Assembly (NCBI RefSeq): GCF_049554935.1
Contig: NZ_CP186926.1
Location: 544,001 to 608,000, forward strand
Source: Methanocaldococcus indicus
GTDB lineage: Archaea; AGJL01; Methanococci; Methanococcales; Methanocaldococcaceae
Length of the DNA stretch: 64,000 nucleotides
Reading direction: 5' to 3'
Shown here: one piece after another, positions 4,038-52,924 of the stretch
How the letters are laid out: each line of letters starts with the position of its first letter
How positions within the stretch are numbered: position 1 is the first letter of the stretch
The notes under the pieces: generated by a model
The model's database searches: none
The model's input: only the letters and a program-made list of their open reading frames with translations
What the model was told of the DNA's origin: nothing
Translations under genes and position numbers: made by a program

Positions 4038-6041
4038 ATGATAAAAACACAATGTCCTTACTGTGGATGTGGCTGTGGATTAATTATTGAGAAAAAAAAT
4101 GGAGAAATAAAAATTAAAGGAAATAGAGAACATCCTGCAAGTAAAGGTAGTATATGTATAAAAGCTGTTAAATTACCTAAAACCTTAGATAAGAATAGAT
4201 TAGATAAGGTATTATATAGAGAGTCAAAAAATGAAGATTTTAGAGAAATTAGTTGGGATTCAGCTTATGAAATATTAAAAGAAAAACTAACTAATCTATC
4301 TCCTAATGAAATCTATTTTTATATCTCTGGCCAGTTATTGACAGAAGAAATGTATGTTATAAACAAGTTTGTAAAAGGATTCTTAAAAACTAACAATATT
4401 GATTCTAATTCAAGATTGTGTGTTGCAAGTGCAGTAACAGCATACAAAATGGCTTTTGGTTCTGATGGACTACCAGGATGTAATGATGACATAGATGATG
4501 CAGATTGTTTTATCTTTGTTGGTTCTAATGCTGCTATTGCTCATCCAGGAATTTTTAGAAGAATTATAAAAAAGAAAGATAAAGAAATTGTTGTTATTGA
4601 TTTTAGATATACTGAAACGGCCAAATATGCTGACAAATGGATTCCAATAAAAGCAGGAACAGATGTAGCTCTTTTTAATTCAATACTCTATATTCTATAT
4701 AAAGAGAACAAAATATACTGGAATTTTATAAAAAAATATACTGATGGATTTGACAAAGTTTTGGAAGTCATAAAAAATTATCCACCTGAAAAAGTTGCCA
4801 AGTTGTGTGAAATTTCTGAGGAAGACATATACTATTTAGCTAATCTTTATGCAAATAAAAAGAAAGTTCTTACTTTTTGGAGTATGGGTATTAATCAATC
4901 TACAAATGGAACAATGAAAGCTCTTTCAATAATCAATGTGCATCTTGCAACAGGAAGATTAAATGATAGAGGTTGTCCTTTTTCTCTAACTGGACAATCT
5001 AATGCAATGGGAGGTAGGGAAGTAGGATATCTATCTAATGGACTACCAGGTTTTAGAGATGTTAGGAACAAAGAGGATAGAGAATTTGTAGAAAAATTTT
5101 GGGGTATTGAAGCTGGCTCAATCAAAGATAAACCTGGATTATCAATAACAGAAGCAGTAGATAAAATTTTAGATGGAGAAATAAAATTTATTTGGATTGT
5201 TTGCACAAATCCAGCAGTTTCTATGGCTAATTTAAATAAATTTATAAAGGCCTTAAAAAAAGAGGATGTATTTGTTGTAGTTCAGGATGCATACTTTACA
5301 GATACTGTTAAGTTGGCCAATCTTGCTCTTCCAGCTGCTCAATGGGGAGAAAAAGATGGTGTTATGACAGGAGGAGATAGAGTAGTTACATACTGCCAAA
5401 AATTTAGAGAAACAAAATATAAGCCTGATTGGAAAATTTTTGCTGAATTAGCTAAAAAAATGGGATTTGAAAAATACTTTAACTATAAATCTGCAAGAGA
5501 CATTTTTGAAGAATTCAAAAAACTTACAAAAGGTAGAATGTGTGACATATCTAATTTTAGTTATGAAGATTTACCTAAAAGATGGGGAAATAAACACCTA
5601 TATAAAGATTTAAAGTTTAAAACAGAAAATAAAAAAGCCAAATTTATACCAACTGAATTTAAAGAGCCAGAAGACTGGAATAAAGAAGGATTTATAATCT
5701 CAACAGGTAGGTTAAAAAAGCATTGGCACACTATGACAAGGACTATCCATATTAAAGAATTTTTAGATGAAATAGAGCCAATAGTTGAAATAAATAAAAA
5801 AGATGCCAAAGAATTAGGACTAAATGAAGGAGATATAGTTAAATTGGTGTCTGAAAGAGGAGAAATAATAAGAAAAGTGAAATTTGCAAATATAAAACCG
5901 AAACATTTATTTACCCCATTTGGATATAATAGGAACGTAACAAAGTATCAAACAAACCAGATAACAACTGATAAGTCAGACCCATATTCAAAAGAACCAG
6001 AGTTGAAATTTAGTAAGGTGAAAATATGGAATGGAAATTAA
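4038..6041 (+). CDS. narB: Assimilatory nitrate reductase catalytic subunit (NarB/NasA type, Mo/W-bisPGD)
   Basis: N-terminal CPYCGCGC...GSIC [4Fe-4S] motif and no Tat signal. FYISGQLLTEE, Mo-ligand NSRLCVASA and SLTGQSNAMGGREVG are signatures of NasA/NarB. Lies next to narK. Confidence 0.88.
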   Translation: MIKTQCPYCGCGCGLIIEKKNGEIKIKGNREHPASKGSICIKAVKLPKTLDKNRLDKVLYRESKNEDFREISWDSAYEILKEKLTNLSPNEIYFYISGQLLTEEMYVINKFVKGFLKTNNIDSNSRLCVASAVTAYKMAFGSDGLPGCNDDIDDADCFIFVGSNAAIAHPGIFRRIIKKKDKEIVVIDFRYTETAKYADKWIPIKAGTDVALFNSILYILYKENKIYWNFIKKYTDGFDKVLEVIKNYPPEKVAKLCEISEEDIYYLANLYANKKKVLTFWSMGINQSTNGTMKALSIINVHLATGRLNDRGCPFSLTGQSNAMGGREVGYLSNGLPGFRDVRNKEDREFVEKFWGIEAGSIKDKPGLSITEAVDKILDGEIKFIWIVCTNPAVSMANLNKFIKALKKEDVFVVVQDAYFTDTVKLANLALPAAQWGEKDGVMTGGDRVVTYCQKFRETKYKPDWKIFAELAKKMGFEKYFNYKSARDIFEEFKKLTKGRMCDISNFSYEDLPKRWGNKHLYKDLKFKTENKKAKFIPTEFKEPEDWNKEGFIISTGRLKKHWHTMTRTIHIKEFLDEIEPIVEINKKDAKELGLNEGDIVKLVSERGEIIRKVKFANIKPKHLFTPFGYNRNVTKYQTNQITTDKSDPYSKEPELKFSKVKIWNGN

Positions 6042-7873
6042 ATGAAATTGTAAATAATGGATTCTGTGCAGCTTGTTCAATATGTTCTGTTGTATGTCCT
6101 AATAATTTAATAGATTTTGATAACAAACCATTTTTAAAAGATGAATGTTTAAGAAAAGGGCATGGAATGTGTTATGAAGTTTGTCCAAGAGTCTCATCTG
6201 GAAAGTATCAAATTAAAATTAGAGAAGGATTTAAAGAGGAGTATTATTATGGAAAAGGAGATATAGAAGGACAAGATGGGGGTGTTGTAACTACTTTTTT
6301 AAAATATTTAATTGAAAATAAAAAGATTGATGGAGCTATTATTGTAGCAAGAGATGAGTATTGGAAACCTATTTCAATGATAGTTCAGACAGCTGATGAC
6401 ATAATAAAAGGAGCAAAATCAAAATACACAATATCAACTATGGAAGCTTTAAGAAAAGCAGGGGAGTTAGGTTTAAAAAAGGTTGCAGTTGTTGGATTAC
6501 CTTGCCAAGTTAATGCATTAAGAAAAATTAAATATTTCCCATATCTCTCCAAGCATGATTTTGAATTGGGAAGAGATGGTAAGCCCACAAAATTACCAAA
6601 AATTGAGTATTTAATTGGATTATTCTGTATGGAGAAGTTTGAATACAACAACTTTAAAGAAGTTTTAGAAAAACATAATATAAATATAAAAGATGTTAAG
6701 AAGTTTGACATTAAAAAAGGAAAGTTGTTAGTCTATTTAGATAATGAAGTTAAAGAGATTAAATTAAGTGAATTTAAAGTATTAGATGGATGTAAAGTTT
6801 GTAGAGACTTTACAGCTGAGTTGGCAGATATTTCAGTAGGTTCTGTTGGTTCTCCTGATGGATATTCAACTATCATTATAAGAACTGAGAAAGGAGAAGA
6901 AATTAAAAAGGCTATTGAATTAAAAGAAGGAGTTGATATTGAAAAAATAGAAAAATTAAAAGAGAAAAAACTAAAAAGATTTAAAGAAGAAATAAATAGA
7001 AGAAAAGAAAATAATGAATTCATCTCATACTATTGGGCTACTGATTATGGAGGAGTTAAAAAAAGAGGAGATGGAAAATTCTTTATAAGAGTTAGAGCTA
7101 AGCCAGCAGGATTTTATACAATTGATGAAATAGAAGGAATTTTAAAAGTAGCCAAAAAATACAATGCTGAAATAAAAACAACTGATAGAGGTGGATTTGA
7201 GCTTCATAAAGTAGATGGTTATTATATTGATGATATTATAAAAGAATTAAAAGAACTAAACATAACAACTGGCTCTGAAGGTCCATTGGTTAGAGCTGTC
7301 TTAGCATGTCCAGGATATTTAAATTGTGGAAATGGTTTAATTGAAACTAAAAAAATAGCTGAAATTATAGAAGAAAAATTTAAAGAGTATCCATCTGAAA
7401 ATAAATTTAAAATTTCTATAAGTGGATGCCCAAGTATGTGTGTTAGAGCAAATATCCATGATATTGGAATTGTAGGGGTAAAAATTCCAAAAGTAAATGA
7501 TAAATGTGTTGGATGTGGCAGATGTTATGAAACTTGCCCTGTAGAGGCAATTTATATAAGAGGAGAAACTTCATACACTAACTATAACATCTGTGTTGGA
7601 TGTGGAAAATGTATTAAAAACTGTCCAAATGAAGGTAGAGAGGCAAAATTTGAAGGATTTAGAATATATATTGGTGGAAAATCCGGAAGAACAGTTTATG
7701 AAGGATTCAGTTATTTAATTGAGAGAGATGTAGATAAAGTTTTAAAAATTATTGAAAATACACTAAAAACATATAAGAAATATACAGATAAAGTCCAAAG
7801 AGAAAGATTAGCTCATGTCATTAGAAAAGTAGGAGTAGAAAACTTCTTAAAAGAAGTTTTTGATAATATTTAA
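6026..7873 (+). CDS. fsr: F420-dependent sulfite/nitrite reductase (Fsr-like fusion: FrhB/FqoF F420H2-oxidising domain plus siroheme reductase domain)
   Basis: N-terminal ferredoxin motif CAACSICSVVCP. FrhB-type motifs GQDGGVVT, VGLPCQ, IGLFC and GCKVCRDFTAELADISVGSVGS. C-terminal siroheme/[4Fe-4S] motifs ACPGYLNC and KFKISISGCPSMC with an inserted 2x[4Fe-4S] domain. Confidence 0.9.
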   Translation: MEWKLNEIVNNGFCAACSICSVVCPNNLIDFDNKPFLKDECLRKGHGMCYEVCPRVSSGKYQIKIREGFKEEYYYGKGDIEGQDGGVVTTFLKYLIENKKIDGAIIVARDEYWKPISMIVQTADDIIKGAKSKYTISTMEALRKAGELGLKKVAVVGLPCQVNALRKIKYFPYLSKHDFELGRDGKPTKLPKIEYLIGLFCMEKFEYNNFKEVLEKHNINIKDVKKFDIKKGKLLVYLDNEVKEIKLSEFKVLDGCKVCRDFTAELADISVGSVGSPDGYSTIIIRTEKGEEIKKAIELKEGVDIEKIEKLKEKKLKRFKEEINRRKENNEFISYYWATDYGGVKKRGDGKFFIRVRAKPAGFYTIDEIEGILKVAKKYNAEIKTTDRGGFELHKVDGYYIDDIIKELKELNITTGSEGPLVRAVLACPGYLNCGNGLIETKKIAEIIEEKFKEYPSENKFKISISGCPSMCVRANIHDIGIVGVKIPKVNDKCVGCGRCYETCPVEAIYIRGETSYTNYNICVGCGKCIKNCPNEGREAKFEGFRIYIGGKSGRTVYEGFSYLIERDVDKVLKIIENTLKTYKKYTDKVQRERLAHVIRKVGVENFLKEVFDNI

Positions 7874-35757: not shown

Positions 35758-36048
35758 TTAATCTAAAACTTCACAAGTTAAAGTGTATATTATTTCATCC
35801 TTAAATAGTTCCTCTATTTTTCTTTTAATATTCTCAATTTCTTCCTTAGAAGGTTTTTCTTTGAGAGGTTTATCAAACATAAAACCACATCTATAATAAT
35901 ATCCAAACTCAGATATTAAAGCTAATTCAGGATATTCAACAGATAGTATTTTTGTATCTTCTCCTAAAATCTTTAATATCTCTTTTAAAACTTTTTCAAA
36001 ATTAAAGCCCTCTTTAACATAAAAAACTCCATCTATTGCTAATTTCAT
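35758..36048 (-). CDS. Hypothetical protein
   Basis: 96-aa ORF coupled by an ATGA overlap to the helicase gene. Confidence 0.7.
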   Translation of the reverse strand: MKLAIDGVFYVKEGFNFEKVLKEILKILGEDTKILSVEYPELALISEFGYYYRCGFMFDKPLKEKPSKEEIENIKRKIEELFKDEIIYTLTCEVLD

Positions 36049-37946
36049 CCTTTCACTCTAAATTTATTTAAAAAATTCTTTATTTCTCTTATAGATTCAT
36101 CTAAACTTAATATTTTGTAGTTATCTTTTAAATATCCTTCTTTTTTTAATGTTCTTCCAACCCATTCAGAAAATCTCTTATCTTGAATTACTACAACTCC
36201 ATAATCATTTTCAGTCCTTATCAACCTACCTATCATTTGAATCAATGTTCTTGCCATTCTGTCAAAGGATGTCATTAAAAAAGCTTTCCATTGTCCATAT
36301 TTTTCTTCTAAAATTTTTTGCTCTTTAATTATTAGTGGAGTAGGAATAGGAAATGGTAAGGAATCTATAATAACCCCAATTAATGCCTCTCCAGGAATAT
36401 CTACACCTTCAGCAAATCTTCCAGTAGCTAATAAAATTCCTCCTTCTCTTATAAATCTATCTTTTAGCTCTTTTGCTTCTTTTCCATCCATACTCTGCTC
36501 ATAAACATGTATATTCTTATTTTCTATATTTAAATTATTAATTTCTTTTTTTAAATATTTGTAAAAGTTATCTAAATCCTCAAAACTTCTGAATAATACC
36601 AATATATTTCCATTTATTGCCTCTATAATTTTTATTAGATTTTTATTTGCTTCATCTCTATTTTTTAGTTCATATTTCATATTTACTCCATCTTCCAGTC
36701 CAATAATCATTTTCCTATCTTTTGGAAATGGGCTATCTAAAACTAAAAAATCAGAATTCTCCATTCCAGTTTTAATAGCATGCATCTTTAAATTTCCAAT
36801 TGTTGCAGAGCAATGAATAACTACACTATCTCCATAAAGTTCTTTTAAAGCAGAATTTACAAATATTGGCTCACATATTAAACTCTCCTTACTTCTATAT
36901 CTTACAAAATTTATATTTGCAAATTTTAAATAATCTAAATTTTCTATAAATTCTGCTAAAACAGGGTCTAAATTTTTCTTTTCTATAAAATCTAATTCAA
37001 TATCTATAATCTCCTTACAGTCAAAATAGAAGTTTATTGGAGGAAGTTCTTCATTTTCATTTAACTCTAATATTTTATTTTTTATCTCCAAAATTTGAGT
37101 GTAGCAATTAAATATTATTCCCAGTATATAGTTTTTATTAAAATTATCTAAATCTCTTTTTAATGTATAATCCAATCCAATATTATTTAAATATCTCTCT
37201 ATCATTTCCCAAAACTTCTCATCCTCTAAATCTAACCTTCTTTTAAAAGCTGTTGGAGCATAATAATATGCCATATATTTTAATCTATTAATTACTTTAT
37301 TTGGATTTATCTCAATTGAATAGGCTCTCCTTATACTATCCTCCAACTTATGAGCTTCATCAACAATAATAACATCAAATTTTTTTAAACTCTCTAATTC
37401 CTCTTTTGCATAGAAAAATATATGGTTGTTCATAACAACAATATCAGCAAAAATACTGTTAATTTTTGAGAGTTGATAATCACAACAACAGAGAGGACAT
37501 AAATAGACAGTTTTATCTCCTAAGTTTATCTCTTTTTTTGGAGAGTTGCAAATACTACAAATCTTCTTTTTATTTGGTCTAAATTTACATTTTCTATTTA
37601 GCTGGCAGTATATTCTATTTGCTTTACTTCCCTTAGCTTTACAAAAATAGTTACCTTTTCCCATAAAAAAAGAAACTTTTAAATTATGTTTTAATGAGTT
37701 GAGCTCTTCATATATTCTTAATTGTTGGTCTATTGTCTCTGTTAATATAGCTACCCTCTTTCCTCTTTCAGCAAAATATATAGAAGGAATTAAATATCCT
37801 AATGTTTTTCCCACACCAGTAGGAGCTTCTATTATTAGATTTCTATTATTTAATATAGAAAAATAGATTTTCAACATCATTCTTTTTTGCTGTTCTCTAA
37901 TACTTGGATATGGAAACCTCTCCTCAATAAAATTTAAGAATTCCAT
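36045..37946 (-). CDS. Rad3/XPD/DinG-family ATP-dependent helicase
   Basis: Q motif REQQ, APTGVGKT, DEAH, SAT, EGVDIPG and QMIGRLIR; Cys-rich FeS region. Confidence 0.9.
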   Translation of the reverse strand: MEFLNFIEERFPYPSIREQQKRMMLKIYFSILNNRNLIIEAPTGVGKTLGYLIPSIYFAERGKRVAILTETIDQQLRIYEELNSLKHNLKVSFFMGKGNYFCKAKGSKANRIYCQLNRKCKFRPNKKKICSICNSPKKEINLGDKTVYLCPLCCCDYQLSKINSIFADIVVMNNHIFFYAKEELESLKKFDVIIVDEAHKLEDSIRRAYSIEINPNKVINRLKYMAYYYAPTAFKRRLDLEDEKFWEMIERYLNNIGLDYTLKRDLDNFNKNYILGIIFNCYTQILEIKNKILELNENEELPPINFYFDCKEIIDIELDFIEKKNLDPVLAEFIENLDYLKFANINFVRYRSKESLICEPIFVNSALKELYGDSVVIHCSATIGNLKMHAIKTGMENSDFLVLDSPFPKDRKMIIGLEDGVNMKYELKNRDEANKNLIKIIEAINGNILVLFRSFEDLDNFYKYLKKEINNLNIENKNIHVYEQSMDGKEAKELKDRFIREGGILLATGRFAEGVDIPGEALIGVIIDSLPFPIPTPLIIKEQKILEEKYGQWKAFLMTSFDRMARTLIQMIGRLIRTENDYGVVVIQDKRFSEWVGRTLKKEGYLKDNYKILSLDESIREIKNFLNKFRVKG

Positions 37947-40889: not shown

Positions 40890-42117
40890 TCTTTTTATGT
40901 CTAAATCCAGAAGATAATAAAGCAGCTCCAACAGCTCCAATCATTTGAGAGTATCTTGGAACTATTATCTCTCTACCTAAAACTTCTTCCATAGCTAAAA
41001 CCAATCCCTTCAATAAACTACTACCCCCAACTAATATAACAGGGTCTCTAACATCAACCTCTTGAAGTTGTTGCTCAAATACTTGCTCTGCAACTGAATG
41101 AGCAGCTGCAGCTGCTACATCTTCTGGTTTAGCTCCCTCTGCTAATGCTGTAACTAAATCCTGAATACCAAAGACAATACAATAACTGTTCATTTTAATT
41201 TTTCTCCAATCTCCTTTTGCTGCTAACTCTCCCAACTCTTGGAGAGATACTCCTAATCTTCTTGCTGTTAGCTCAAAGAATCTACCACTTGCTCCTGCAC
41301 AAATACCTCCCATTGTAAATCCATCTGGAATAGCATCATATAGGGAGATAGCTTTGTTGTCCATTCCACCAATATCTATAACAGTTGCTTCACCCTCTTG
41401 TCTATCTGCTAAATATGCTGCTCCTTTTGAATTAACTGTTAGCTCTTCTTGAATTAAATCTGCTTTAAAGTATCTTCCAACTGTATATCTACCATAACCA
41501 GTAGTCCCAATAGTTTCAACTTCATCTAATGTTATCCCTGCTTCTTTTAAGGCTAAATCAACAGCTTCTTTAGCAGTTCCTATAACATCCTTTGTATATA
41601 ACCAACCAGTTCCAGCAATTTCATCGTCAATCATTACAACAGCTTTTGTAGTTGTTGAACCACTATCAATTCCTAAACTAATTCCTTCTTGTTTCTTTCT
41701 TGCTAACAATGCCTTTCTCTCAACTATTGTAACTAATGCTTCCATTCTTGTTAATAACTCAGATGCCTTAGTTCTTTCTGTAAATGAATACATAACTACT
41801 GGAAGATTGGTATTTTGCTGAATAAGTTTTCTAACTTCATTCCTAACTAATGCTCCTTCTGCACATCTAAAACAAGTAGCAACAAACACAGCCTCAGCAT
41901 CAGTATTGCCTTCAATAATAGACATAGCCCTTGCAAACATTAATTTTAGATTTGCAGAAGCTACTTTAAATCCTAATCTTTCCTCAACTTCTTCAATATA
42001 GTTAAAATCTACTTCAGGAAAAATTAATTCACCACCAACTGATTGAGCAGCTTTTTCTATTTCTTTATAAACTCCACTCCATTCTGCTCCGCATGTTAAT
42101 AGAGCTATTTTTACCAT
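40879..42117 (-). CDS. Methanogenesis marker protein 15 (BadF/BcrAD ASKHA-ATPase activase family)
   Basis: [43 protein letters not shown] and YCIVFG. Confidence 0.92.
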
Positions 42118-42248
42118 GACGAATTCCTCCCTTAAACTTAATATTTTTGACTAATTATAACCTTTAATTTTTTAATAATTTTTATAATAATTTAGTCATA
42201 ATATAATTAGTTAATAGATTAGTTAATAGTTACTATTAGGGATTTATC

Positions 42249-43109
42249 ATGAATTTATTCAAATATTTGAGAGAGAATAAAAGATTTTTGCTACTGTCTT
42301 TTATTTGGTGTATTATATTTATGTTTTCAATTATAAAATTCATTAAATTCAAGATGATTGGCTCATCTTCATGTATCAATTTATATCCTTCACTTACACC
42401 AATGTTAGGATTAGTTTTAGGACCCATATATGGTAGTTTAGTTATTATTATACTATTTATATATTACTGTATTTTTCATCCTAAGGCATTATATTTTGGA
42501 ATTTTTTCAATTGTTCCTCCAATATTGTCTGTTATAGTAGCAAGCTATCTTTCAGAGGGAAAATGGAAAATTCCAGCAATAATTTTTGGAGTAGGATTAT
42601 TAATATTTTATTTTACTGATGTTGGAAAGATTGTGTGGTATCATCCAATATTTTCAATTATTTCATTCTTATTAATACTAACTTTAAAAGATGAAATATC
42701 AAAAAATCTATTTTCTAAAAATACACCTAAATTTTTAGTTTCTGTGTTAGTTTTCTGTTTTATAACAGTTATGACAGACCATCTATATGGCTCTATTTTA
42801 GGGATAATATATTTACATTTACCACCAGATATGTATAAGAAAGCTATCCATGATTATATTTTAGAGAGAACAATTATGACAATTATTGGTTCAATTTTTG
42901 TAATATTTAACATTGAAATAATGAAATTTATAATATCTAATTATGAAGGCTTCAAAAGAGAGATAATTTTAAAATTTGTAGATATTAAAAGTAATGAAAT
43001 AGAGATAGACAAAGAGTTATTAAAGAAATATAATATAAAATTATTAGATAAAGAAGAAAAAGAAAGAATTATAGTAGAGACCTTAAAAATTTTGAGTGGT
43101 AAAAAATGA
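42249..43109 (+). CDS. Membrane protein, ECF S-component-like
   Basis: Multi-TM protein; PMLGLVLGPIYG and DHLYGS...ER patterns seen in archaeal ECF substrate-binding-like proteins. Confidence 0.6.
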   Translation: MNLFKYLRENKRFLLLSFIWCIIFMFSIIKFIKFKMIGSSSCINLYPSLTPMLGLVLGPIYGSLVIIILFIYYCIFHPKALYFGIFSIVPPILSVIVASYLSEGKWKIPAIIFGVGLLIFYFTDVGKIVWYHPIFSIISFLLILTLKDEISKNLFSKNTPKFLVSVLVFCFITVMTDHLYGSILGIIYLHLPPDMYKKAIHDYILERTIMTIIGSIFVIFNIEIMKFIISNYEGFKREIILKFVDIKSNEIEIDKELLKKYNIKLLDKEEKERIIVETLKILSGKK

Positions 43110-43846
43110 TTATAAAAAATAAGAGAGTTAAATTTATTTTTATTTTTTGGACTATTTTTATATTTTTTGTAAGTATTAATTTTTTTATAACTATAAAAAA
43201 TATGTTTCATTTCTATAATACTCCAGGAATTTGTTTGTCTCCTGTTCTAATACTATTTTTAGGATTATTTTATTCAATTTTAGTTTGGATAATTTTAATG
43301 ATATTACATGTATTAATATTTAAACTAAGCATTTTTAAATTATTACCTTCTTTTTTATCTATATTTATATCTGGACTTATATATGAAAATAAAAAAAAAT
43401 ATGTATTATATATTCTAATTTTAGAATTAATAATTAGCTTATTTTTAAAATTAGAGCTATTTCCACTATTTGTTTTAGCAATTATATTAGTTTATAAATT
43501 TGATAACATAAAAATAAATTTATTCAATAAAAATTTAATTAAAAGAGTAATATATATTTTTGTTTTTGTATATCCTGCTATTCTAAGTTTTTATTTGTTT
43601 GAAAATTTTTCAAGTATATTAGAGATATTTGTCTATTCATTGCTATCCTTAGTTTTAATATTTATGATAACTGAGACAATTGTAATCTTTGTTAATAACA
43701 TTGACACCTTAAGAGAAAAGGTTATTAAATATAACAATAAAAATAAAGAAATAAAAATTGATGAAAATTTAGCAGAGAAATATAATGTTAAAGTTCCAAC
43801 TGAAGAAGAAATTTTAAAACAATTTAAAAATTTTAAGAAAAAATGA
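43106..43846 (+). CDS. Membrane protein, divergent tandem paralog of the preceding gene
   Basis: Multi-TM protein; C-terminal EIKIDENLAEKYNVKVPTEEE matches the neighbour's EIEIDKELLKKYNIKLLDKEE. Confidence 0.6.
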   Translation: MIIKNKRVKFIFIFWTIFIFFVSINFFITIKNMFHFYNTPGICLSPVLILFLGLFYSILVWIILMILHVLIFKLSIFKLLPSFLSIFISGLIYENKKKYVLYILILELIISLFLKLELFPLFVLAIILVYKFDNIKINLFNKNLIKRVIYIFVFVYPAILSFYLFENFSSILEIFVYSLLSLVLIFMITETIVIFVNNIDTLREKVIKYNNKNKEIKIDENLAEKYNVKVPTEEEILKQFKNFKKK

Positions 43847-44012
43847 AAAAAATAAAATAACATTTATTAAATTTTATATTTCAATTTATTTCAGATTTTA
43901 TTTTATATGGGCTTAATCTAATATCTAATTTAATTTTATTTATGAGTTATTATTTTATTTAATTTTTCACATTCAATGAACCTATTTAAATTAACATATA
44001 TGAGTGATTTTT

Positions 44013-46475
44013 ATGTCATTAACACCAATGATGAGACAATACTACAAAATTAAAGAGAGGTATAAAGATTGTCTATTATTTTTTAGAGTTGGAGATTTTT
44101 ATGAATTGTTTGATGAAGATGCTAAAATAGCATCTAAGGAATTAGGAATAGTTCTAACATCAAGAGATAAAAAACATCCAATGGCAGGAGTTCCTTATCA
44201 TGCAGTTATCCCTTATATTAGAAGGTTAATTGAGAAAGGTTATAAAGTAGCAATTTGTGAGCAAGTTGAGAATCCATCAACAGCTAAGGGTTTAGTTAAG
44301 AGGGAAGTTGTTAGGGTTATAACTCCTGGGACTTTAATAGAAGAGGAGTTTTTAACAAGAGAAAGTAATTATTTAATGTCAATATATAAAGATAAGAAGT
44401 ATGGAATTTCACTTATTGATATCTCAACTGGTGAGTTTTTAACAACAACAGTAAATACTTTTGATGAGTTAGTTGCTGAGATATTGAAGTTTTCTCCTGT
44501 TGAAGTTATATTACCAAGAGATTTTGATAATATAGATGAGATTAAAAAGTTAGTAGATGTTGTCCATCCATTAGTTGAGAACTATTATAATTTAGATGAA
44601 GCTAAATTTTTAATTGAAGAATTTATAAATAACAATAAAGAGTTGAATTTATCAAAGGAGAGCTTATTATCTGTTGGAGCAGCATTGAAATATATAAGTG
44701 AATCATTGAAAGTTAAGCATCTAAAACTATATCTTCAAACATACATAGCAAAGGAGTATATGCTCTTAGATTCCACTACTCTAAAAAATTTGGAAATATT
44801 TAAAAATTTAGTTGATAACTCTAAAAGAGGTTCTTTATTGGAGGTTTTAGATAAAACTAAAACACCGATGGGTTCAAGATTACTAAAAAAATGGTTACAG
44901 AGACCATTATTAAATGTTGAGCAAATAGAAAGAAGGTTAGAAAGTGTTGAAGAACTATACAACAAATCATTTTTAAGAGAAAATCTAAGAGAAATTTTAA
45001 AGGATATTTATGACATTGAAAGAATTGCAAGTAGAATAGAGTATGAAAGGGCATCTCCAAAGGATTTGGTTGCATTAAAAGATTCCTTAAAATTCATCAA
45101 AGAAATTAAAAAATTTAAATTTAATTCCAAAATGTTGAATAACATTGTTGAAAGTATAGAAAGTTTAGAGGATGTAGAAGAGTTAATAGAGAAAGCTATT
45201 GTAGATGACCCACCTATTAATATAAAAGATGGAGGAATAATAAAAGATAACTTCTCCAAAGAATTGGATGAATTAAGAGAATTAAAAAATAACTTAGAGA
45301 AGATTTTAAAAGATATTGAAGAAAGAGAAAGAGCTAAGACAGGAATAGAAAAATTAAAAATTGGATACAACTCAGTTATTGGATTTTATATAGAAGTGCC
45401 AAAATCTAAAATAAAGTTAGTGCCAAAATACTACAAAAGAAAACAAACATTGGCAAACTCAGAAAGATATAAGATAGATGAGTTAGATGAGTTAGAAGAG
45501 AAGTTATTGGCAAATGATGAAAAAATAAAAAATTTAGAGTATGAACTCTTTATTTATGTTAGAGATAAGGTTAAAGAAAAAGTAGAGGATATTAGAGAAG
45601 TAGCAAAAAAAATAGCTGAATTGGATGTTTTATCTACTTTTGCAGAAGTTTCTGTTCTTTACAACTATACTAAACCAAAGGTGTATAATGGATATACAAT
45701 AAATATTAAAGATGCAAGACATCCAACTGTTGAGCTAAATACTAAATTTGTCCCTAATGATATCATTTTAAAAAAAGATAGTAGGATTATTTTAATAACT
45801 GGCCCAAATATGGCTGGAAAATCAACATATTTAAGAACATCTGCATTAATAACAATTATGGCACAAATTGGATGCTTTGTCCCTGCTAAATCTGCTGTTA
45901 TTGGAGTTGTAGATAGAATATTTACAAGGATTGGGACAGTTGATGACATAACCAGAGGATACAGTAGTTTTATGGTTGAAATTTCAGAAGTAGCTCAAAT
46001 ACTCAAAAATGCTACAAGTAAAAGTTTAATTTTATTGGATGAGGTAGGTAAATCAACAGCCAATAAAGATGGTGTGAGCTTAGCTTGGGGAATTGTTGAG
46101 TATCTCCATAAATTGGGGGCAAAAACTTTATTTGCAACACACTATCATGAACTTTCAGAGTTAGAGGGAATCTTAGAAGGTGTTAAAAATTATCACTTTG
46201 GAATTATTGAAAAAGATGGCTTAATAGAGTTTGATAGAAAAATTAAGAGAGGAGCAAGTACTGAGAGTTATGGTATTAAAATAGCTGAATTAGTTTTACC
46301 AAAAGAAGTGATAGAGAGAGCTTATGAAATCTACAACAAATTAGAGAAATCCTCAGGAGATAATGAAATAGTTAGATATTTAGCACACTTAGATATAAAC
46401 AATTTAACTCCAATCCAGGCATTGGTTGAGTTAGATAAGTTAGTGAAAAAATGCAAGAAACTATTAAGAGAATAG
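44013..46475 (+). CDS. mutS: DNA mismatch repair protein MutS (MutS1)
   Basis: TPMMRQY, mismatch-binding GDFYELF, PMAGVP, TPGT, clamp region QTLANSERY, RHP, Walker A GPNMAGKST, FMVE, Walker B LLDE, ATHYHEL, SYGI and C-terminal NLTPIQAL. Confidence 0.96.
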   Translation: MSLTPMMRQYYKIKERYKDCLLFFRVGDFYELFDEDAKIASKELGIVLTSRDKKHPMAGVPYHAVIPYIRRLIEKGYKVAICEQVENPSTAKGLVKREVVRVITPGTLIEEEFLTRESNYLMSIYKDKKYGISLIDISTGEFLTTTVNTFDELVAEILKFSPVEVILPRDFDNIDEIKKLVDVVHPLVENYYNLDEAKFLIEEFINNNKELNLSKESLLSVGAALKYISESLKVKHLKLYLQTYIAKEYMLLDSTTLKNLEIFKNLVDNSKRGSLLEVLDKTKTPMGSRLLKKWLQRPLLNVEQIERRLESVEELYNKSFLRENLREILKDIYDIERIASRIEYERASPKDLVALKDSLKFIKEIKKFKFNSKMLNNIVESIESLEDVEELIEKAIVDDPPINIKDGGIIKDNFSKELDELRELKNNLEKILKDIEERERAKTGIEKLKIGYNSVIGFYIEVPKSKIKLVPKYYKRKQTLANSERYKIDELDELEEKLLANDEKIKNLEYELFIYVRDKVKEKVEDIREVAKKIAELDVLSTFAEVSVLYNYTKPKVYNGYTINIKDARHPTVELNTKFVPNDIILKKDSRIILITGPNMAGKSTYLRTSALITIMAQIGCFVPAKSAVIGVVDRIFTRIGTVDDITRGYSSFMVEISEVAQILKNATSKSLILLDEVGKSTANKDGVSLAWGIVEYLHKLGAKTLFATHYHELSELEGILEGVKNYHFGIIEKDGLIEFDRKIKRGASTESYGIKIAELVLPKEVIERAYEIYNKLEKSSGDNEIVRYLAHLDINNLTPIQALVELDKLVKKCKKLLRE

Positions 46476-46927
46476 AAAAAATAATTTATGAGTTGGAAGA
46501 AATAAACAAAAATTTAGATAGTAGAGAGATAAGAGATGCAATAGAAAATTTAAAAATCTTTTTATATTCTAAAAAAATAGGTAATGAGAGCTTTTTACAT
46601 AGCTATGTTAGAGATAAATTATTAAAAAAATTTAAAGGAAGTGCATATATAGAAAGTAAAGAACTTAAACTAAATTTAAATTTTAGACCAGATATTGTTT
46701 TTTTAAATAAAGATGAGTTAATAATTGTAGAGATTGAAACAGATAAAAGAAGATGCCTAAAAAAGATGGAAAAAATATTTAAAAATTTAGACAAGGTTTA
46801 TTCTCTTCCAATATCAACAAATAGAAAAGTTAGAATTATTTTTGTAACTGAAAGAGATGAAAAAATTTTAAGAAAAGCTAAATTTTACAACTTTGAGGTT
46901 TTGGATATATATGAGGAAGGAAAATAA
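46451..46927 (+). CDS. Putative PD-(D/E)xK-fold nuclease
   Basis: N-terminal coiled helix, then ESFLH...E...RPDIVF...LIIVEIETDK, the restriction-endonuclease-like core order. Overlaps the mutS 3' end by 25 nt. Confidence 0.65.
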   Translation: MQETIKRIEKIIYELEEINKNLDSREIRDAIENLKIFLYSKKIGNESFLHSYVRDKLLKKFKGSAYIESKELKLNLNFRPDIVFLNKDELIIVEIETDKRRCLKKMEKIFKNLDKVYSLPISTNRKVRIIFVTERDEKILRKAKFYNFEVLDIYEEGK

Positions 46928-47276
46928 AAAAATAAAAAAGATTGCTAAGGAAAGAATTGACATTTTAATGAGTTTAGCTGAGAAAGAGGCAAAAAGAGGA
47001 AACTGGGAGAGAGCTAAAAGATATGTGTATTTAGCAAGAAAAATAGCTATGAAAGTTAGAATAAAAATGCCTAAAAAATGGAAAAGAAGATTTTGCAAAA
47101 AATGTTTAACTTTCTGGATTCCTGGGAAGAATGTAAGAATTAGGATAAAATCTAAGAGGTATCCTCATGTTGTAATAACTTGTTTAGAGTGTGGTAAGAT
47201 TTATAGAATTCCATACATAAGAGAGAAAAAAGAAAAAAGAAATAAAAAGTTGGTAGAAGATAATAATATAGATTAA
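46911..47276 (+). CDS. rnp4: Ribonuclease P protein component 4 (Rpp21)
   Basis: IAKERI, RYVYLARKI, KRRFCKKC and TCLECG. Confidence 0.93.
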   Translation: MRKENKKIKKIAKERIDILMSLAEKEAKRGNWERAKRYVYLARKIAMKVRIKMPKKWKRRFCKKCLTFWIPGKNVRIRIKSKRYPHVVITCLECGKIYRIPYIREKKEKRNKKLVEDNNID

Positions 47277-48120: not shown

Positions 48121-49446
48121 ATGAACATTGAAAATATAATTAAAAACATAAAAAATAATGAATATTTGAATAAAGAGCTTCTAACAAAAAATAATAAAAA
48201 TAAAGTATATTATGCTGTTAAACAACCTGATGGCAATTTAAAGGTTGTTATTCCTACTGTTTTCCAAAATAAAAACTTTTTAAAGTTAAAAAAGTACATA
48301 GATGGAATAGAAGGAGCAACACAAAGAGTTATTGAAGAGATAAAAAAAGAGATTATTAGTAAAAAAAGATTTATTAACTTAGCTGGATATTTTAGTAGGA
48401 GATATAGAGAGCTGTATGAACCTCTAACTGTTGTTAATTGTGATTTAAATATAGGCTATAATTTATGGAGAGTTGATAAATACAACTACATTAAGGAAGA
48501 TAAAATTTATCTCCTTTTAAGAATGATTTTTAAAGAAAAGGATGAGAAAGAAATAGCCAAAAAGATAGATTCTCTTTTGTTAGAGTTAAATCAATTCATT
48601 AAGAATATAGATATAAATATTTTAATTGAAGAAGCTAAGAATATCATTAATCAGAAGTATATTAGAGAAAATTTAGACAAATTGGGATTAGTTTGTTTTA
48701 TTGGAAATAACTCAAAACCTGCAAGAAAATATACAGAAGTGAGAAAACATTACAGAATAGCTGGACCTAAGGAAATAAATATTCCCTTTGTATGCCCAGA
48801 AGAATTAAATCCAATTGAAATAACTCCAAAATATGGAAAGGAAATAAAAGGGTTGGGAATAAAAAAGAAGGAAATTTTTATTATAACTGGGAGGAATGCA
48901 CAAGGAAAAACAACACTATTAAATGCTATTTACTCTGGACAAGATGACCATTTAATTGGGGATGGAAGAGAGTTTATAATTACAACAAAATCATTGGCAA
49001 GAGCTACAACTGGAAGTATGGAGATGACTGGACAAGATATTTCTTTATTTTTTGATAAACTACCTCCTGGTGTTAGAGGAACTCCAAAGTCAGTTTATGG
49101 AACAGCTTCTGGCTCTATGTATATGGCTTATCAAATACAGAGAGCTATAAAAAACAAAACAAAATTAATATTGATTGATGAAGATAACTCAGCTGTTAAT
49201 TTGTTGGTTTCAGGAGTTTTAAGTAAGTGGTTTGAAGGTGTAAGGAGTTTATCTGATATAATTATGGAAAATAGAGAGCTATTAGGAGAAAGTGCTTTTA
49301 TTATAGTTACAAGCTCTTTAGATTTCTTAACAGCTTTAGGAGATAGAGCAATATATCTTCAAGAGCATAAACCTTATTATTTAGATTTAGACAAATTTAA
49401 AAAAGAAGTTAAATCTTATTATTTAAAAAAGATTGAGAGGTTATAA
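48121..49446 (+). CDS. Soluble ABC-class ATPase domain protein (COG3044-like)
   Basis: Walker A ITGRNAQGKTTLL, HLIGDGREF, ASGS signature and Walker B LILIDEDNSA. Confidence 0.75.
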   Translation: MNIENIIKNIKNNEYLNKELLTKNNKNKVYYAVKQPDGNLKVVIPTVFQNKNFLKLKKYIDGIEGATQRVIEEIKKEIISKKRFINLAGYFSRRYRELYEPLTVVNCDLNIGYNLWRVDKYNYIKEDKIYLLLRMIFKEKDEKEIAKKIDSLLLELNQFIKNIDINILIEEAKNIINQKYIRENLDKLGLVCFIGNNSKPARKYTEVRKHYRIAGPKEINIPFVCPEELNPIEITPKYGKEIKGLGIKKKEIFIITGRNAQGKTTLLNAIYSGQDDHLIGDGREFIITTKSLARATTGSMEMTGQDISLFFDKLPPGVRGTPKSVYGTASGSMYMAYQIQRAIKNKTKLILIDEDNSAVNLLVSGVLSKWFEGVRSLSDIIMENRELLGESAFIIVTSSLDFLTALGDRAIYLQEHKPYYLDLDKFKKEVKSYYLKKIERL

Positions 49447-51155: not shown

Positions 51156-51530
51156 ATGTTAAAAACACTACCACCAACACTAAGAGAAAAAAAAAGATAT
51201 ATTGCTTTTAAAATTATATATGAAGAAGAACTGTCAGAGGGGGAAGTTGTTAATCTTATTAGAAAAGCTGTTTTAGAGTACTATGGACAATGGGGAACAT
51301 CTAAATCAAATCCTTGGTTAGTTTTTTACAAATATCCTTATGGTATTGTTAGATGCCAAAGGGATAATGTTGATTTTGTAAAAACATCTTTAATTTTAGT
51401 TAATAAGTATAAAGATAAACCAATAAATATTATTTGTTTAGGAGTTTCTGGAACAATAAGGAAAGCTAAAATAAAGTTTTTAAAAATTAAACCTGTGAGA
51501 TGGTTTATTTTAAAAAGATTGAAAAAGTGA
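51156..51530 (+). CDS. rnp2: Ribonuclease P protein component 2 (Pop5)
   Basis: LPPTLREKKRYIAF, GIVRC and LGVSGTIRKA. Confidence 0.93.
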   Translation: MLKTLPPTLREKKRYIAFKIIYEEELSEGEVVNLIRKAVLEYYGQWGTSKSNPWLVFYKYPYGIVRCQRDNVDFVKTSLILVNKYKDKPINIICLGVSGTIRKAKIKFLKIKPVRWFILKRLKK

Positions 51531-51535
51531 TAACC

Positions 51536-52924
51536 ATGAATATAAATATTGGATTATTTGGTCATATAGACCATGGAAAAACAGAATTAGCCAAAAGATT
51601 AAGTGAAATTATTTCAACATCTGCATTAGATAAGCCAAAAGAATCAAGAGAAAGGGGAATAACAATAGATTTGGGATTTTCTTCTTTTATTTTGGATAAG
51701 TATAGAATAACATTGGTAGATGCTCCTGGACATTCAGAACTAATAAAAACTGCTGTTAATGCAGGAAAAATTATAGATTTAGCTTTATTAGTTGTAGATG
51801 CAAAAGAAGGACCAAAAACCCAAACAGGAGAACATTTAATTGTTTTAGATTTGTTGAATATTCCCACTATTGTAGTTATTAATAAGATAGATATAGCAAG
51901 TAAGGAAGAGATTGAAAGAACAAAAAAATTAATGAAAATTATTTTAGATTCAACAAATAATTTAAAAAACTCTAAAATTGTGGAGATATCTGCAAAAACA
52001 GGGGATGGAATAGATGAATTAAAAAAAATTATTAAGGAGACATTAGATAATTTAACAATTGTAAGGGATGTAAATAACTTTTTTAAAATGCCTATTGACC
52101 ATGCATTTAAAATAAAAGGTATTGGAACAGTAGTGACAGGAACAATTTTAAAGGGAAAAGTTAAAGTTGGAGATACATTAATTGTATATCCTACAAATTT
52201 AGAGGTTAAAGTTAAATCTATACAATGTTTTAAGGAGAATGTTGAAGAAGCTAAGGCAGGAAATAGAGTAGGAATGAACTTATCTGGAATAGAGCCAGAA
52301 CAGATATTTAGAGGTTGTGTATTATCAAGTTTAGAGAACAATCTTAAATTAACTGATAAATTTGTTGCAAAAATAAAAATTGTAGATATATTTAAATATA
52401 ATTTAACACCTAAAATGAAAGTGCATCTTAACATTGGTTTATTAACAATTTCAGCCAGGATATATCCATTTAAAAAATTAAATATAGATAATAAAGAGGA
52501 AAATATTGTTTTAAATGAAATAAAAGCAGGAGATGAATGTTATTGTTTATTTGAATTAGAAAAAAAAGTTATGATGGAAGAGGGAGATAAAATATTAATT
52601 TTAAGGTTAGATTTACCAGCAACAACTTTAAGAATTGCTGGAATTGGAGAAGTTATTGGATTTGACAATGTTGAATTAAAAAAATTGTCAGTTAAAAAAG
52701 GAAAAGTAGTTAAAAGAAAAAATAAATTAGTAGTAGAAGGATTAGCTACATCAAAAAAATCAGCTGAGAAACTTATTGGTGAGAGAGTATATATAAAAGA
52801 TAAAAATATTGTTGGAATAATTAAAGAAACATTTGGAACAAAAGGAGCCTTATTAGTTGATTTTAATGGAGATGTAGAAGGGGGGGAAGAGGTAGAACTT
52901 ATTAGAGTTAGGAAATGGGGGTGA
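51536..52924 (+). CDS. selB: Selenocysteine-specific translation elongation factor
   Basis: GHIDHGKT, RGITIDLGF, DAPGH, QTGEH and NKID; archaeal C-terminal domain (ETFGTKG). Confidence 0.93.
   Translation: MNINIGLFGHIDHGKTELAKRLSEIISTSALDKPKESRERGITIDLGFSSFILDKYRITLVDAPGHSELIKTAVNAGKIIDLALLVVDAKEGPKTQTGEHLIVLDLLNIPTIVVINKIDIASKEEIERTKKLMKIILDSTNNLKNSKIVEISAKTGDGIDELKKIIKETLDNLTIVRDVNNFFKMPIDHAFKIKGIGTVVTGTILKGKVKVGDTLIVYPTNLEVKVKSIQCFKENVEEAKAGNRVGMNLSGIEPEQIFRGCVLSSLENNLKLTDKFVAKIKIVDIFKYNLTPKMKVHLNIGLLTISARIYPFKKLNIDNKEENIVLNEIKAGDECYCLFELEKKVMMEEGDKILILRLDLPATTLRIAGIGEVIGFDNVELKKLSVKKGKVVKRKNKLVVEGLATSKKSAEKLIGERVYIKDKNIVGIIKETFGTKGALLVDFNGDVEGGEEVELIRVRKWG

Follow-up and report, generated by a model that had tools for sequence, protein, structure and literature searches.

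In the MutS-MutL-MutH system of Escherichia coli, mutH is unlinked to mutS. NucS/EndoMS of Thermococcales and Actinobacteria acts on mismatches in organisms that have no MutL, recognises the mismatch with its own N-terminal domain and makes double-strand breaks. In MutS2-Smr, and in the MutS7-HNH of octocoral mitochondria and giant viruses, divergent MutS paralogues carry a covalently fused Smr or HNH nuclease. Herein, we analysed a stretch of 64,000 nucleotides (nt) from Methanocaldococcus indicus (contig NZ_CP186926.1, positions 544,001 to 608,000; hereafter, the window), in which mutS overlaps a gene for a protein of 158 amino acids (aa) that is predicted to have the PD-(D/E)xK (restriction-endonuclease) fold. 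The pair is like the E. coli system in combining a MutS1 sensor, with its GDFYE and Walker A motifs, and a small stand-alone nuclease candidate of the restriction-endonuclease fold, for which an incision role is proposed here. It is unlike that system in that the nuclease gene overlaps mutS, no MutL was seen near the window pair, and there is no evidence here of a methyl-directed signal. With NucS it shares an archaeal PD-(D/E)xK protein, but recognition would fall to MutS. As in MutS2-Smr and MutS7-HNH, a MutS-family ATPase would be coupled to a nuclease without MutL, whereas here the partners are an orthodox MutS1 and a separate PD-(D/E)xK protein. The literature searched, from which most subscription journals were absent, contained no description of a small nuclease encoded next to mutS in archaea.

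The pair occupies the following positions in the window:

44013..46475, + strand: mutS, encoding a five-domain MutS1 of 820 aa from the ATG at 44013 (Pfam, NCBIfam and PDB structure matches)
46443..46475, + strand: the junction, with GTGA at 46443-46446, the ATG of the small gene at 46451-46453 and the mutS stop codon TAG at 46473-46475
46451..46927, + strand: small MutS-linked candidate nuclease of the PD-(D/E)xK fold, 158 aa (alignment-based AlphaFold2 (AF2) model and Foldseek)

The mutS open reading frame (ORF) as listed begins with a GTG at 44004, and the ATG at 44013 is the likely start. The small gene begins with an ATG, shares 25 nt with the mutS reading frame and is preceded by the GTGA motif 4 nt upstream of its start, so that the coordinates and the overlap given in the preliminary description of this locus were confirmed. 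We propose that mutS and the small gene make up a two-gene cassette, coupled by overlapping translation, which moves horizontally among hyperthermophilic Euryarchaeota (Methanocaldococcaceae and Archaeoglobaceae), and that the small protein serves MutS as its effector nuclease; we judge the chances of this reading being right or wrong to be evenly balanced. It is favoured because the gene overlap is ancient and strictly conserved, the two proteins diverge together, the pair is mobile, the invariant putative active site looks intact and the MutS lacks a clamp motif.

Genome contigs were searched with a profile from a four-sequence alignment (A2), and six related loci were returned. These loci and their flanks, together with those of the window, were as follows:

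L003: Methanocaldococcus sp. 28A, complete chromosome; insertion sequence (IS) transposases upstream, thermosome gene downstream
L005: Methanocaldococcus sp. 16A, complete chromosome; hisS upstream, thermosome gene downstream
L001: Methanocaldococcaceae metagenome-assembled genome (MAG)
L006: Archaeoglobaceae MAG, with an Archaeoglobus-type damage-control phosphatase equivalog in the flank (523 bits); GNAT acetyltransferase gene upstream, fae-hps downstream
L002 and L004: MAGs of uncultured archaea, flanked as in L006
Window: two membrane-protein ORFs upstream, rnp4 downstream

In all six loci, mutS immediately precedes and overlaps the small gene, which bears out the pairing asserted in the preliminary description. 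The mutS product has five domains in 5/6 loci, and in L001 the contig end leaves domains III-V. The overlap measured 19-22 nt in five loci, is about 22 nt by coordinates in L001 and is 25 nt in the window. All seven sequences (six loci and the window) have the same junction, AGTGA-N4-5-ATGCA. The gene rnp4 was not found downstream of the pair in the five other loci that extend past the small gene. Thus, the conserved pair stands in three different flanking contexts, indicating that mutS and the small gene are conserved and move as one unit and that the link to rnp4 is incidental. The preliminary description had placed the cassette at the head of a housekeeping run; this did not hold beyond the window, since elsewhere the thermosome gene or fae-hps follows, and among the six loci no homologue was linked to rnp4 in a genome without mutS. 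The pairwise identities of MutS and of the small protein were correlated (r = 0.94, over 15 non-independent pairs), and the small protein diverged faster, with 46-70% identity between groups versus 70-84% for MutS.

To define the small-protein family, an exhaustive phmmer search was run over 1.84 billion cluster representatives (E ≤ 1e-3). It gave nine matches, namely the query, seven relatives that are 163-176 aa long (E from 5.6e-37 to 2.1e-7) and one protein of 939 aa, so that the family amounts to about eight representatives in this collection. The 939-aa protein (P0009) had seven short matches and was rejected as spurious, being a repeat protein in which the unit 'YLPDVVF.EEDTLL' recurs. 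A word-index search with the 158-aa protein found nothing beyond the query itself. Sequence searches of the PDB, whether with the protein or with the profile of its family, returned nothing significant, the best relevant match being the R2 retrotransposon endonuclease region at an E of 1.2. The window protein, the seven cluster representatives and the six copies from the genomic loci were aligned (14-sequence alignment A3), and the homologues were 32-58% identical to the window protein. Seventeen columns were invariant (M1, L15, A30, I31, E46, H50, Y66, E68, R79, P80, D81, V83, E94, E96, K105, R125 and F131; 14/14). Because homologues from six loci and seven representatives share these columns, the 158-aa ORF is not a chance ORF, and by its conservation it is a real gene maintained in related genomes.

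The fold of the small protein was predicted with and without the alignment. From the single sequence, the best AF2 model had a predicted local distance difference test score (pLDDT) of 75, and the other four had 43-48. With the 14-sequence alignment, the best model reached a pLDDT of 85.7 and a predicted template-modelling score (pTM) of 0.70, and all five models agreed at 84-85.7. The N-terminus forms a hairpin of two long helices (residues 2-22 and 25-39), consistent with the N-terminal helix noted in the preliminary description. It is followed in the model by a helix at 48-60, strands at 64-67, 82-85 and 89-95, a helix at 99-111, a strand at 126-133, and then one more helix and strand. The predicted structure therefore contains, at about residues 48-152, the alpha-beta-beta-beta-alpha-beta core by which the superfamily is defined.

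Foldseek comparison of the alignment-based model with the PDB gave Cdn1 (E 5.6e-4), Card1, Can2, Nt.BspD6I, NucS/EndoMS (2vld and 5gke), the R2 retrotransposon endonuclease and SfsA, with probabilities of 0.98-1.0 and query-normalised template-modelling (TM) scores (TMq) of 0.37-0.50. The single-sequence model gave McrC, Cdn1, the R2 retrotransposon endonuclease, N.BspD6I, NucS/EndoMS, Card1 and Can2. We take the top matches (Cdn1, Card1, Can2, Nt.BspD6I, NucS and others) to be nucleases of the restriction-endonuclease fold. The neighbours of the ESM Atlas model were NERD, Card1_endonuc and RE_AlwI clusters (TM 0.52-0.61). At the sequence level, weak Pfam matches to AHJR-like (PF18743) were found for 6/8 members (best E 5.4e-5) and to PDDEXK_10 (PF07788) for 2/8; these matches span the PD...ExE segment, but the small-protein family differs from both in its additional N-terminal hairpin and in having ExE for ExK. 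The likeness to NucS lies in the C-terminal nuclease domain, of which the nuclease core alone aligns (TMq 0.47-0.48 for 2vld and 0.40-0.50 for 5gke), whereas the small protein has no Pfam NucS match and carries the helical hairpin in place of the NucS N-domain. Neither MutH nor Vsr was matched in Pfam at E up to 10 for the window protein or up to 1 for the eight members, and neither was among the Foldseek matches listed.

The invariant residues were then placed on the model. The elements of the putative active site are:

46586..46600, + strand: E46...H50, start of core helix alpha1, invariant 14/14
46685..46693, + strand: R79-P80-D81 (the 'PD' element), head of core strand beta2, invariant 14/14; codons AGA CCA GAT
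46730..46738, + strand: E94-I-E96, an ExE variant of (D/E)xK, end of core strand beta3, with E94 and E96 invariant 14/14; codons GAG ATT GAA
46763..46765, + strand: K105, on the helix after beta3, invariant 14/14; a candidate for a relocated catalytic lysine

A further invariant residue, E68 (14/14), lies just past beta1 in the AF2 model. The motifs read in the preliminary description (E46-S-F-L-H50, R79-P80-D81 and V93-E-I-E-T-D-K99) were all found, and the order of catalytic elements that it proposed recurs as an E...PD...ExE...K constellation that is invariant in 14/14. On the model, the invariant residues follow the canonical order of catalytic elements, with a glutamate at the usual position of the lysine. 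A precedent exists in BamHI, a restriction-endonuclease-fold enzyme with an Asp...Glu-x-Glu site that is active with a glutamate for the (D/E)xK lysine. The small protein resembles the BamHI-type active site in this glutamate, and no sequence relationship or specific fold relationship between the two was detectable here. The missing motif lysine may be replaced in function by the invariant K105, which lies on the helix that follows. Taken together, the AF2 and Foldseek results, the Atlas neighbours and the weak AHJR-like and PDDEXK_10 matches support the 158-aa protein as a candidate nuclease of the PD-(D/E)xK fold. The earlier interpretation as a whole was supported in part: the nuclease fold and the linkage to mutS stood, the link to rnp4 fell, and the small protein may be recruited by MutS and may act without MutL.

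Fold and active site bear on the possibility that the small protein is an unrelated passenger, either a structure-specific nuclease (a resolvase like Hjc or AHJR-like, or a flap nuclease) or a non-catalytic DNA-binding protein, which came to be co-transcribed with mutS after joint transfer. The best similarity at the sequence level is indeed to AHJR-like (archaeal Holliday-junction-resolvase-like) profiles, and the ExE variant, without the canonical lysine, also speaks for this reading. Against it, a coding overlap of 19-25 nt kept in all seven loci, together with co-divergence across MutS identities of 70-98%, points to selection on joint expression of mutS and the small gene; moreover, no member was found without mutS in the six loci examined. 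We therefore regard a mere passenger as very unlikely.

The MutS protein of the window was then characterised. The Pfam domains MutS_I, II, III, IV and V are all present at full length and in order (E from 1e-19 to 1e-74), and the NCBIfam MutS equivalogs scored 968.9 and 923.8 bits, both above their cut-offs. The structures of E. coli and Taq (Thermus) MutS match residues 4-781 with an E of about 1e-172. By these matches, the protein is an orthodox MutS1, not a paralogue of the MutS2 or MutS5 type. Its main features are:

44091..44105, + strand: mismatch-binding motif G27-D-F-Y-E31 in MutS domain I, aligned with the GDFYE of E. coli MutS
45801..45827, + strand: Walker A loop GPNMAGKST of the ATPase domain, MutS residues 597-605
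46278..46406, + strand: short C-terminal linker, MutS residues ~756-798, 43 aa in the window, without a QxxhF clamp-type motif

In a 75-sequence MutS alignment (A4), G27, D28, F29 and E31 of the mismatch-binding motif and G597, P598, N599, G602, K603, S604 and T605 of Walker A were invariant. The residues that align with Q211/Q212 of E. coli MutS, a MutL-contact site, are F-L in the window MutS; as that site is presumably not conserved outside gamma-proteobacteria, it was not used for any conclusion.

A search with the window MutS returned a tight clade of 43 clusters (P0010-P0052, the window MutS included), which are 58-76% identical to it and mostly 806-846 aa long (one has 769 aa). Its named members come from Methanocaldococcus sp. 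10A, 16A and 28A, Archaeoglobus sp. and Ferroglobus sp. Among full-length matches, a score gap from 1004 to 829 bits separates the clade from the remaining MutS proteins, which are 45-52% identical to the window MutS and belong to Asgard archaea, Clostridia, Aciduliprofundum and Thermoplasmata. Eleven positions were specific to the clade. For example, DEIGRGT right after Walker B has become DEVGKST (MutS residues 676-684, window ~46038-46064), with a glycine in 76/76 non-clade MutS proteins and a serine in 95% of the clade. The overlapping ATG of the small gene is formed by Lys-Cys (K-C) codons near the MutS C-terminus. A cysteine within the last 12 residues was present in 37/43 clade MutS proteins versus 3/77 others, one of those three being a truncated clade-like fragment. 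As an indirect proxy, this cysteine suggests that most clade members, though not P0044 and P0048-P0052, come with the overlapping gene. The members P0048-P0052 are 58-59% identical to the window MutS, have 840-845 aa and have a slightly longer linker.

In the C-terminal alignment, the clade lacks the greater part of the linker that joins domain V to the terminal helix-turn-helix. We took the linker as the residues lying between the landmarks SYGI and TPxxAL, which could be parsed in 40/43 clade members and 62/77 others. Its median length was 44.5 aa in the clade and 77 aa in the others, and QxxhF, a motif of the kind through which bacterial MutS binds the sliding clamp, occurred in 0/40 and 50/62, respectively. 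These alignments indicate that the clade has shed its clamp-type linker motif.

The clamp motif bears directly on a conventional explanation, in which MutL is encoded elsewhere in the genome and the small protein is an accessory nuclease of the canonical pathway, either a MutH-like nicking enzyme activated by MutS and MutL or a helper in excision. MutH, itself a PD-(D/E)xK nuclease, needs MutL, and this speaks for such an arrangement. Bacterial MutS and endonuclease-type MutL depend on sliding-clamp coupling, but here the MutS clade has no clamp-type linker motif; furthermore, the two genes travel together into different contexts, and, at E up to 10, the window protein does not resemble MutH in sequence. 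The genomic neighbourhood was scanned as well. No MutL-type domain was found among 65 window ORFs (10 + 55), nor within 10 kb of the pair in the six loci, where 65 of the 76 non-nested ORFs of at least 100 aa and one open-ended ORF were covered. The other 11 locus ORFs comprise five small-nuclease ORFs, one antisense shadow, four ORFs of 100-134 aa and one of 451 aa, which shares 95% identity with the PmbA/TldD of L003 that was scanned. On the basis of the window and the six locus neighbourhoods, independence of the pair from MutL is plausible.

Published surveys give a further view of this question. In the entries of Supplementary Dataset 1 of Castaneda-Garcia et al. 2017 that concern these lineages, Ferroglobus placidus and Archaeoglobus profundus are listed as 'idMutS-undefMutL' and 'noNucS', and the four other Archaeoglobi of the table have neither MutS nor MutL. 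The same entries give Methanosarcinales, Haloferax and Aciduliprofundum boonei as 'idMutS-idMutL', M. jannaschii as having NucS without MutS, and M. infernus and M. maripaludis as having neither, M. maripaludis being without MutL too. The closest non-clade MutS proteins thus come from lineages listed with both proteins, such as Aciduliprofundum, which is in favour of an accessory role, as are the confinement of our MutL scan to the window and loci and the unreliability of the published 'undefMutL' label. Overall, we consider it unlikely that the small protein merely assists a canonical pathway.

The effector reading also takes in the mobility of the pair. Between the Methanocaldococcus and the Archaeoglobaceae-type loci, MutS is 77-79% identical, although the G+C content (GC) is 0.30 versus 0.41-0.45. 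From this MutS identity across differing GC, we infer that the pair may have been transferred horizontally among hyperthermophiles. Such mobility between archaeal classes would equally suit heteroduplex rejection or surveillance of foreign DNA, in which MutS spots mismatched recombination intermediates formed with diverged incoming DNA and the nuclease degrades these. The pair would then curb homeologous recombination or invading elements and would not serve to correct replication errors. Anti-recombination is an established function of MutS, IS elements adjoin the pair in L003, and several of the top fold matches are defence nucleases (Card1, Can2, Cdn1 and McrC). Against this, the neighbours are housekeeping genes and not defence islands, the MutS is an orthodox MutS1 and not a divergent paralogue, and tblastn found no homologues on plasmids or phages in the collections searched. 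PADLOC likewise assigned no family to the window protein and two other members; P0007 had a single weak, unconfirmed match to PDC-S19 (E 7.5e-5), and MutS had only a weak P-loop match. A primary role in rejection or surveillance is therefore distinctly unlikely in our judgement.

If MutS indeed acts through the small protein as its effector, the pathway could run as follows. MutS would act as a fully equipped mismatch sensor, and the small protein would be a metal-dependent endonuclease with an active site of E46/H50...P80-D81...E94-x-E96...K105, its N-terminal helical hairpin probably serving in dimerisation or docking. In the most likely mechanism, a mismatch would be recognised, the ATP-activated MutS would license the nuclease, and the DNA would be cut near the mismatch, so that the small nuclease would carry out the incision for which bacteria use MutL or MutH. 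The analysis establishes the gene pair with its conservation and co-divergence, the predicted fold, the invariant residues and the MutS linker without a clamp motif; that the small protein cuts DNA, depends on MutS and works without MutL is inferred, and the cut could be a nick or a double-strand break. A more ambitious version, in which a self-contained, MutL-independent module has spread among hyperthermophiles without MutL and NucS and its MutS1 directly licenses a dedicated, dimeric PD-(D/E)xK endonuclease to cut at mismatches or close to them, appears doubtful, though within reach. Prediction of a complex between MutS and the small protein (from alignments A4 and A3) gave scores of 0.35, 0.29 and 0.26 (median 0.29) against a mark of 0.32; being run without controls, it is neither support for binding nor evidence against it.

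Several observations weigh against an effector role for the small protein. On the structural side, the Foldseek E-values were modest, with just one at ≤ 1e-3. The AHJR-like match of the window protein was 16.7 bits against a curated cut-off of 26.1, and no sequence match reached a curated cut-off. The replacement of the canonical (D/E)xK lysine by glutamate (E96) means that activity or chemistry could differ. The window copy is also the shortest at the C-terminus, ending in ...IYEEGK, and the 13 others run 3-5 residues longer. On the genomic side, the MutS sub-branch of P0044 and P0048-P0052 lacks the K-C codon pair that makes the overlapping ATG, and the genomes concerned may have no small gene or may use a different start for it. 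Among 7999 candidates there was no longer, fused form, which is weak evidence; no MutS-nuclease fusion was found, and no strand-discrimination signal was evident. The scan for MutL covered 64 kb of a genome of ~1.41 Mb and at most 20 kb per locus. Aquifex aeolicus has a biochemically characterised MutL. Among the species entries of Castaneda-Garcia et al. 2017, 'undefMutL' is attached to 233 species including A. aeolicus, so that the label is weak evidence of absence and serves as a hint only.

The surroundings of the pair were also inspected. Its downstream neighbour in the window lies outside the cassette:

46911..47276, + strand: rnp4, RNase P component 4 with an Rpr2 domain (Pfam Rpr2, 75.2 bits)

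The NCBIfam score of rnp4 was 150.9 bits, under the cut-off of 162, and the match runs from residue 7 of an ORF that opens with a TTG at 46893. From the probable ATG at 46911, rnp4 overlaps the 3' end of the 158-aa ORF by 17 nt, in keeping with the overlap first described. The extra C-terminal tail of the 13 other small proteins is mostly L-x-K/R-hydrophobic-hydrophobic, and the tail missing from the window protein (window 46913-46927) coincides with the rnp4 overlap.

Upstream, mutS is adjoined by two overlapping tandem ORFs for paralogous membrane proteins (42249-43109 and 43106-43846, + strand; 27% identity, E 1e-11), which belong to no Pfam family and share a C-terminal tail 'I.ID..L..KYN.K'. 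The 2-kb block 42001-44000 has the lowest GC in the window (0.203). An XPD/Rad3-type helicase gene (36045-37946, - strand; DEAD_2 and Helicase_C_2) lies ~6 kb upstream of mutS and is read in the opposite direction. A predicted ABC-class ATPase (48121-49446, + strand; Pfam ABC_ATPase and ABC_N) stands in the same plus-strand run, with DUF1890 on one side and UPF0179 on the other, and in the other loci no link between this ATPase and the mutS-nuclease pair was seen. In L003 of Methanocaldococcus sp. 28A, two DDE transposase ORFs (4983-5621 and 6306-6932) are located just upstream of mutS. Upstream of the pair in L006 (2912-6007), L002 (1-1146) and L004 (1-510) is a gene for an intein-containing (LAGLIDADG) tetraether lipid synthase, Tes.

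The window as a whole is a low-GC segment of an archaeal chromosome (0.20-0.31 per 2 kb), and its gene content is that of a hydrogenotrophic methanogen of the Methanococcales type, with archaeal SelB, an Fsr-like F420-dependent sulfite reductase, DUF1894, DUF1890 and UPF0179. The Fsr-type fusion (6026-7873, + strand) joins an F420 dehydrogenase beta subunit to sulfite reductase domains, and SelB is encoded at 51500-52924 (+ strand). Together, the two fit a selenoprotein-using, sulfite-tolerant member of the Methanococcales.

The passages on mismatch repair in two reviews (PMC7343888; PMC8358315) describe hyperthermophilic archaea as lacking MutS and MutL, and call the replication fidelity of these organisms an enduring mystery. 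MutS1 is nevertheless present in Methanocaldococcus and Archaeoglobaceae, although such reviews deny MutS/MutL to hyperthermophilic archaea. The MutS-nuclease pair is small, thermostable and open to direct testing in vitro. If it is true that the small nuclease is the effector of MutS, mismatch repair would be reducible to two proteins without MutL, which would bear on MutS-to-nuclease signalling, on strand choice without a clamp and on the evolution of MutH-, MutL- and NucS-type solutions. If the pair moreover works as a MutL-independent module, it would add a third way of correcting mismatches after replication and would account for the fidelity of replication in some hyperthermophiles that have no NucS.

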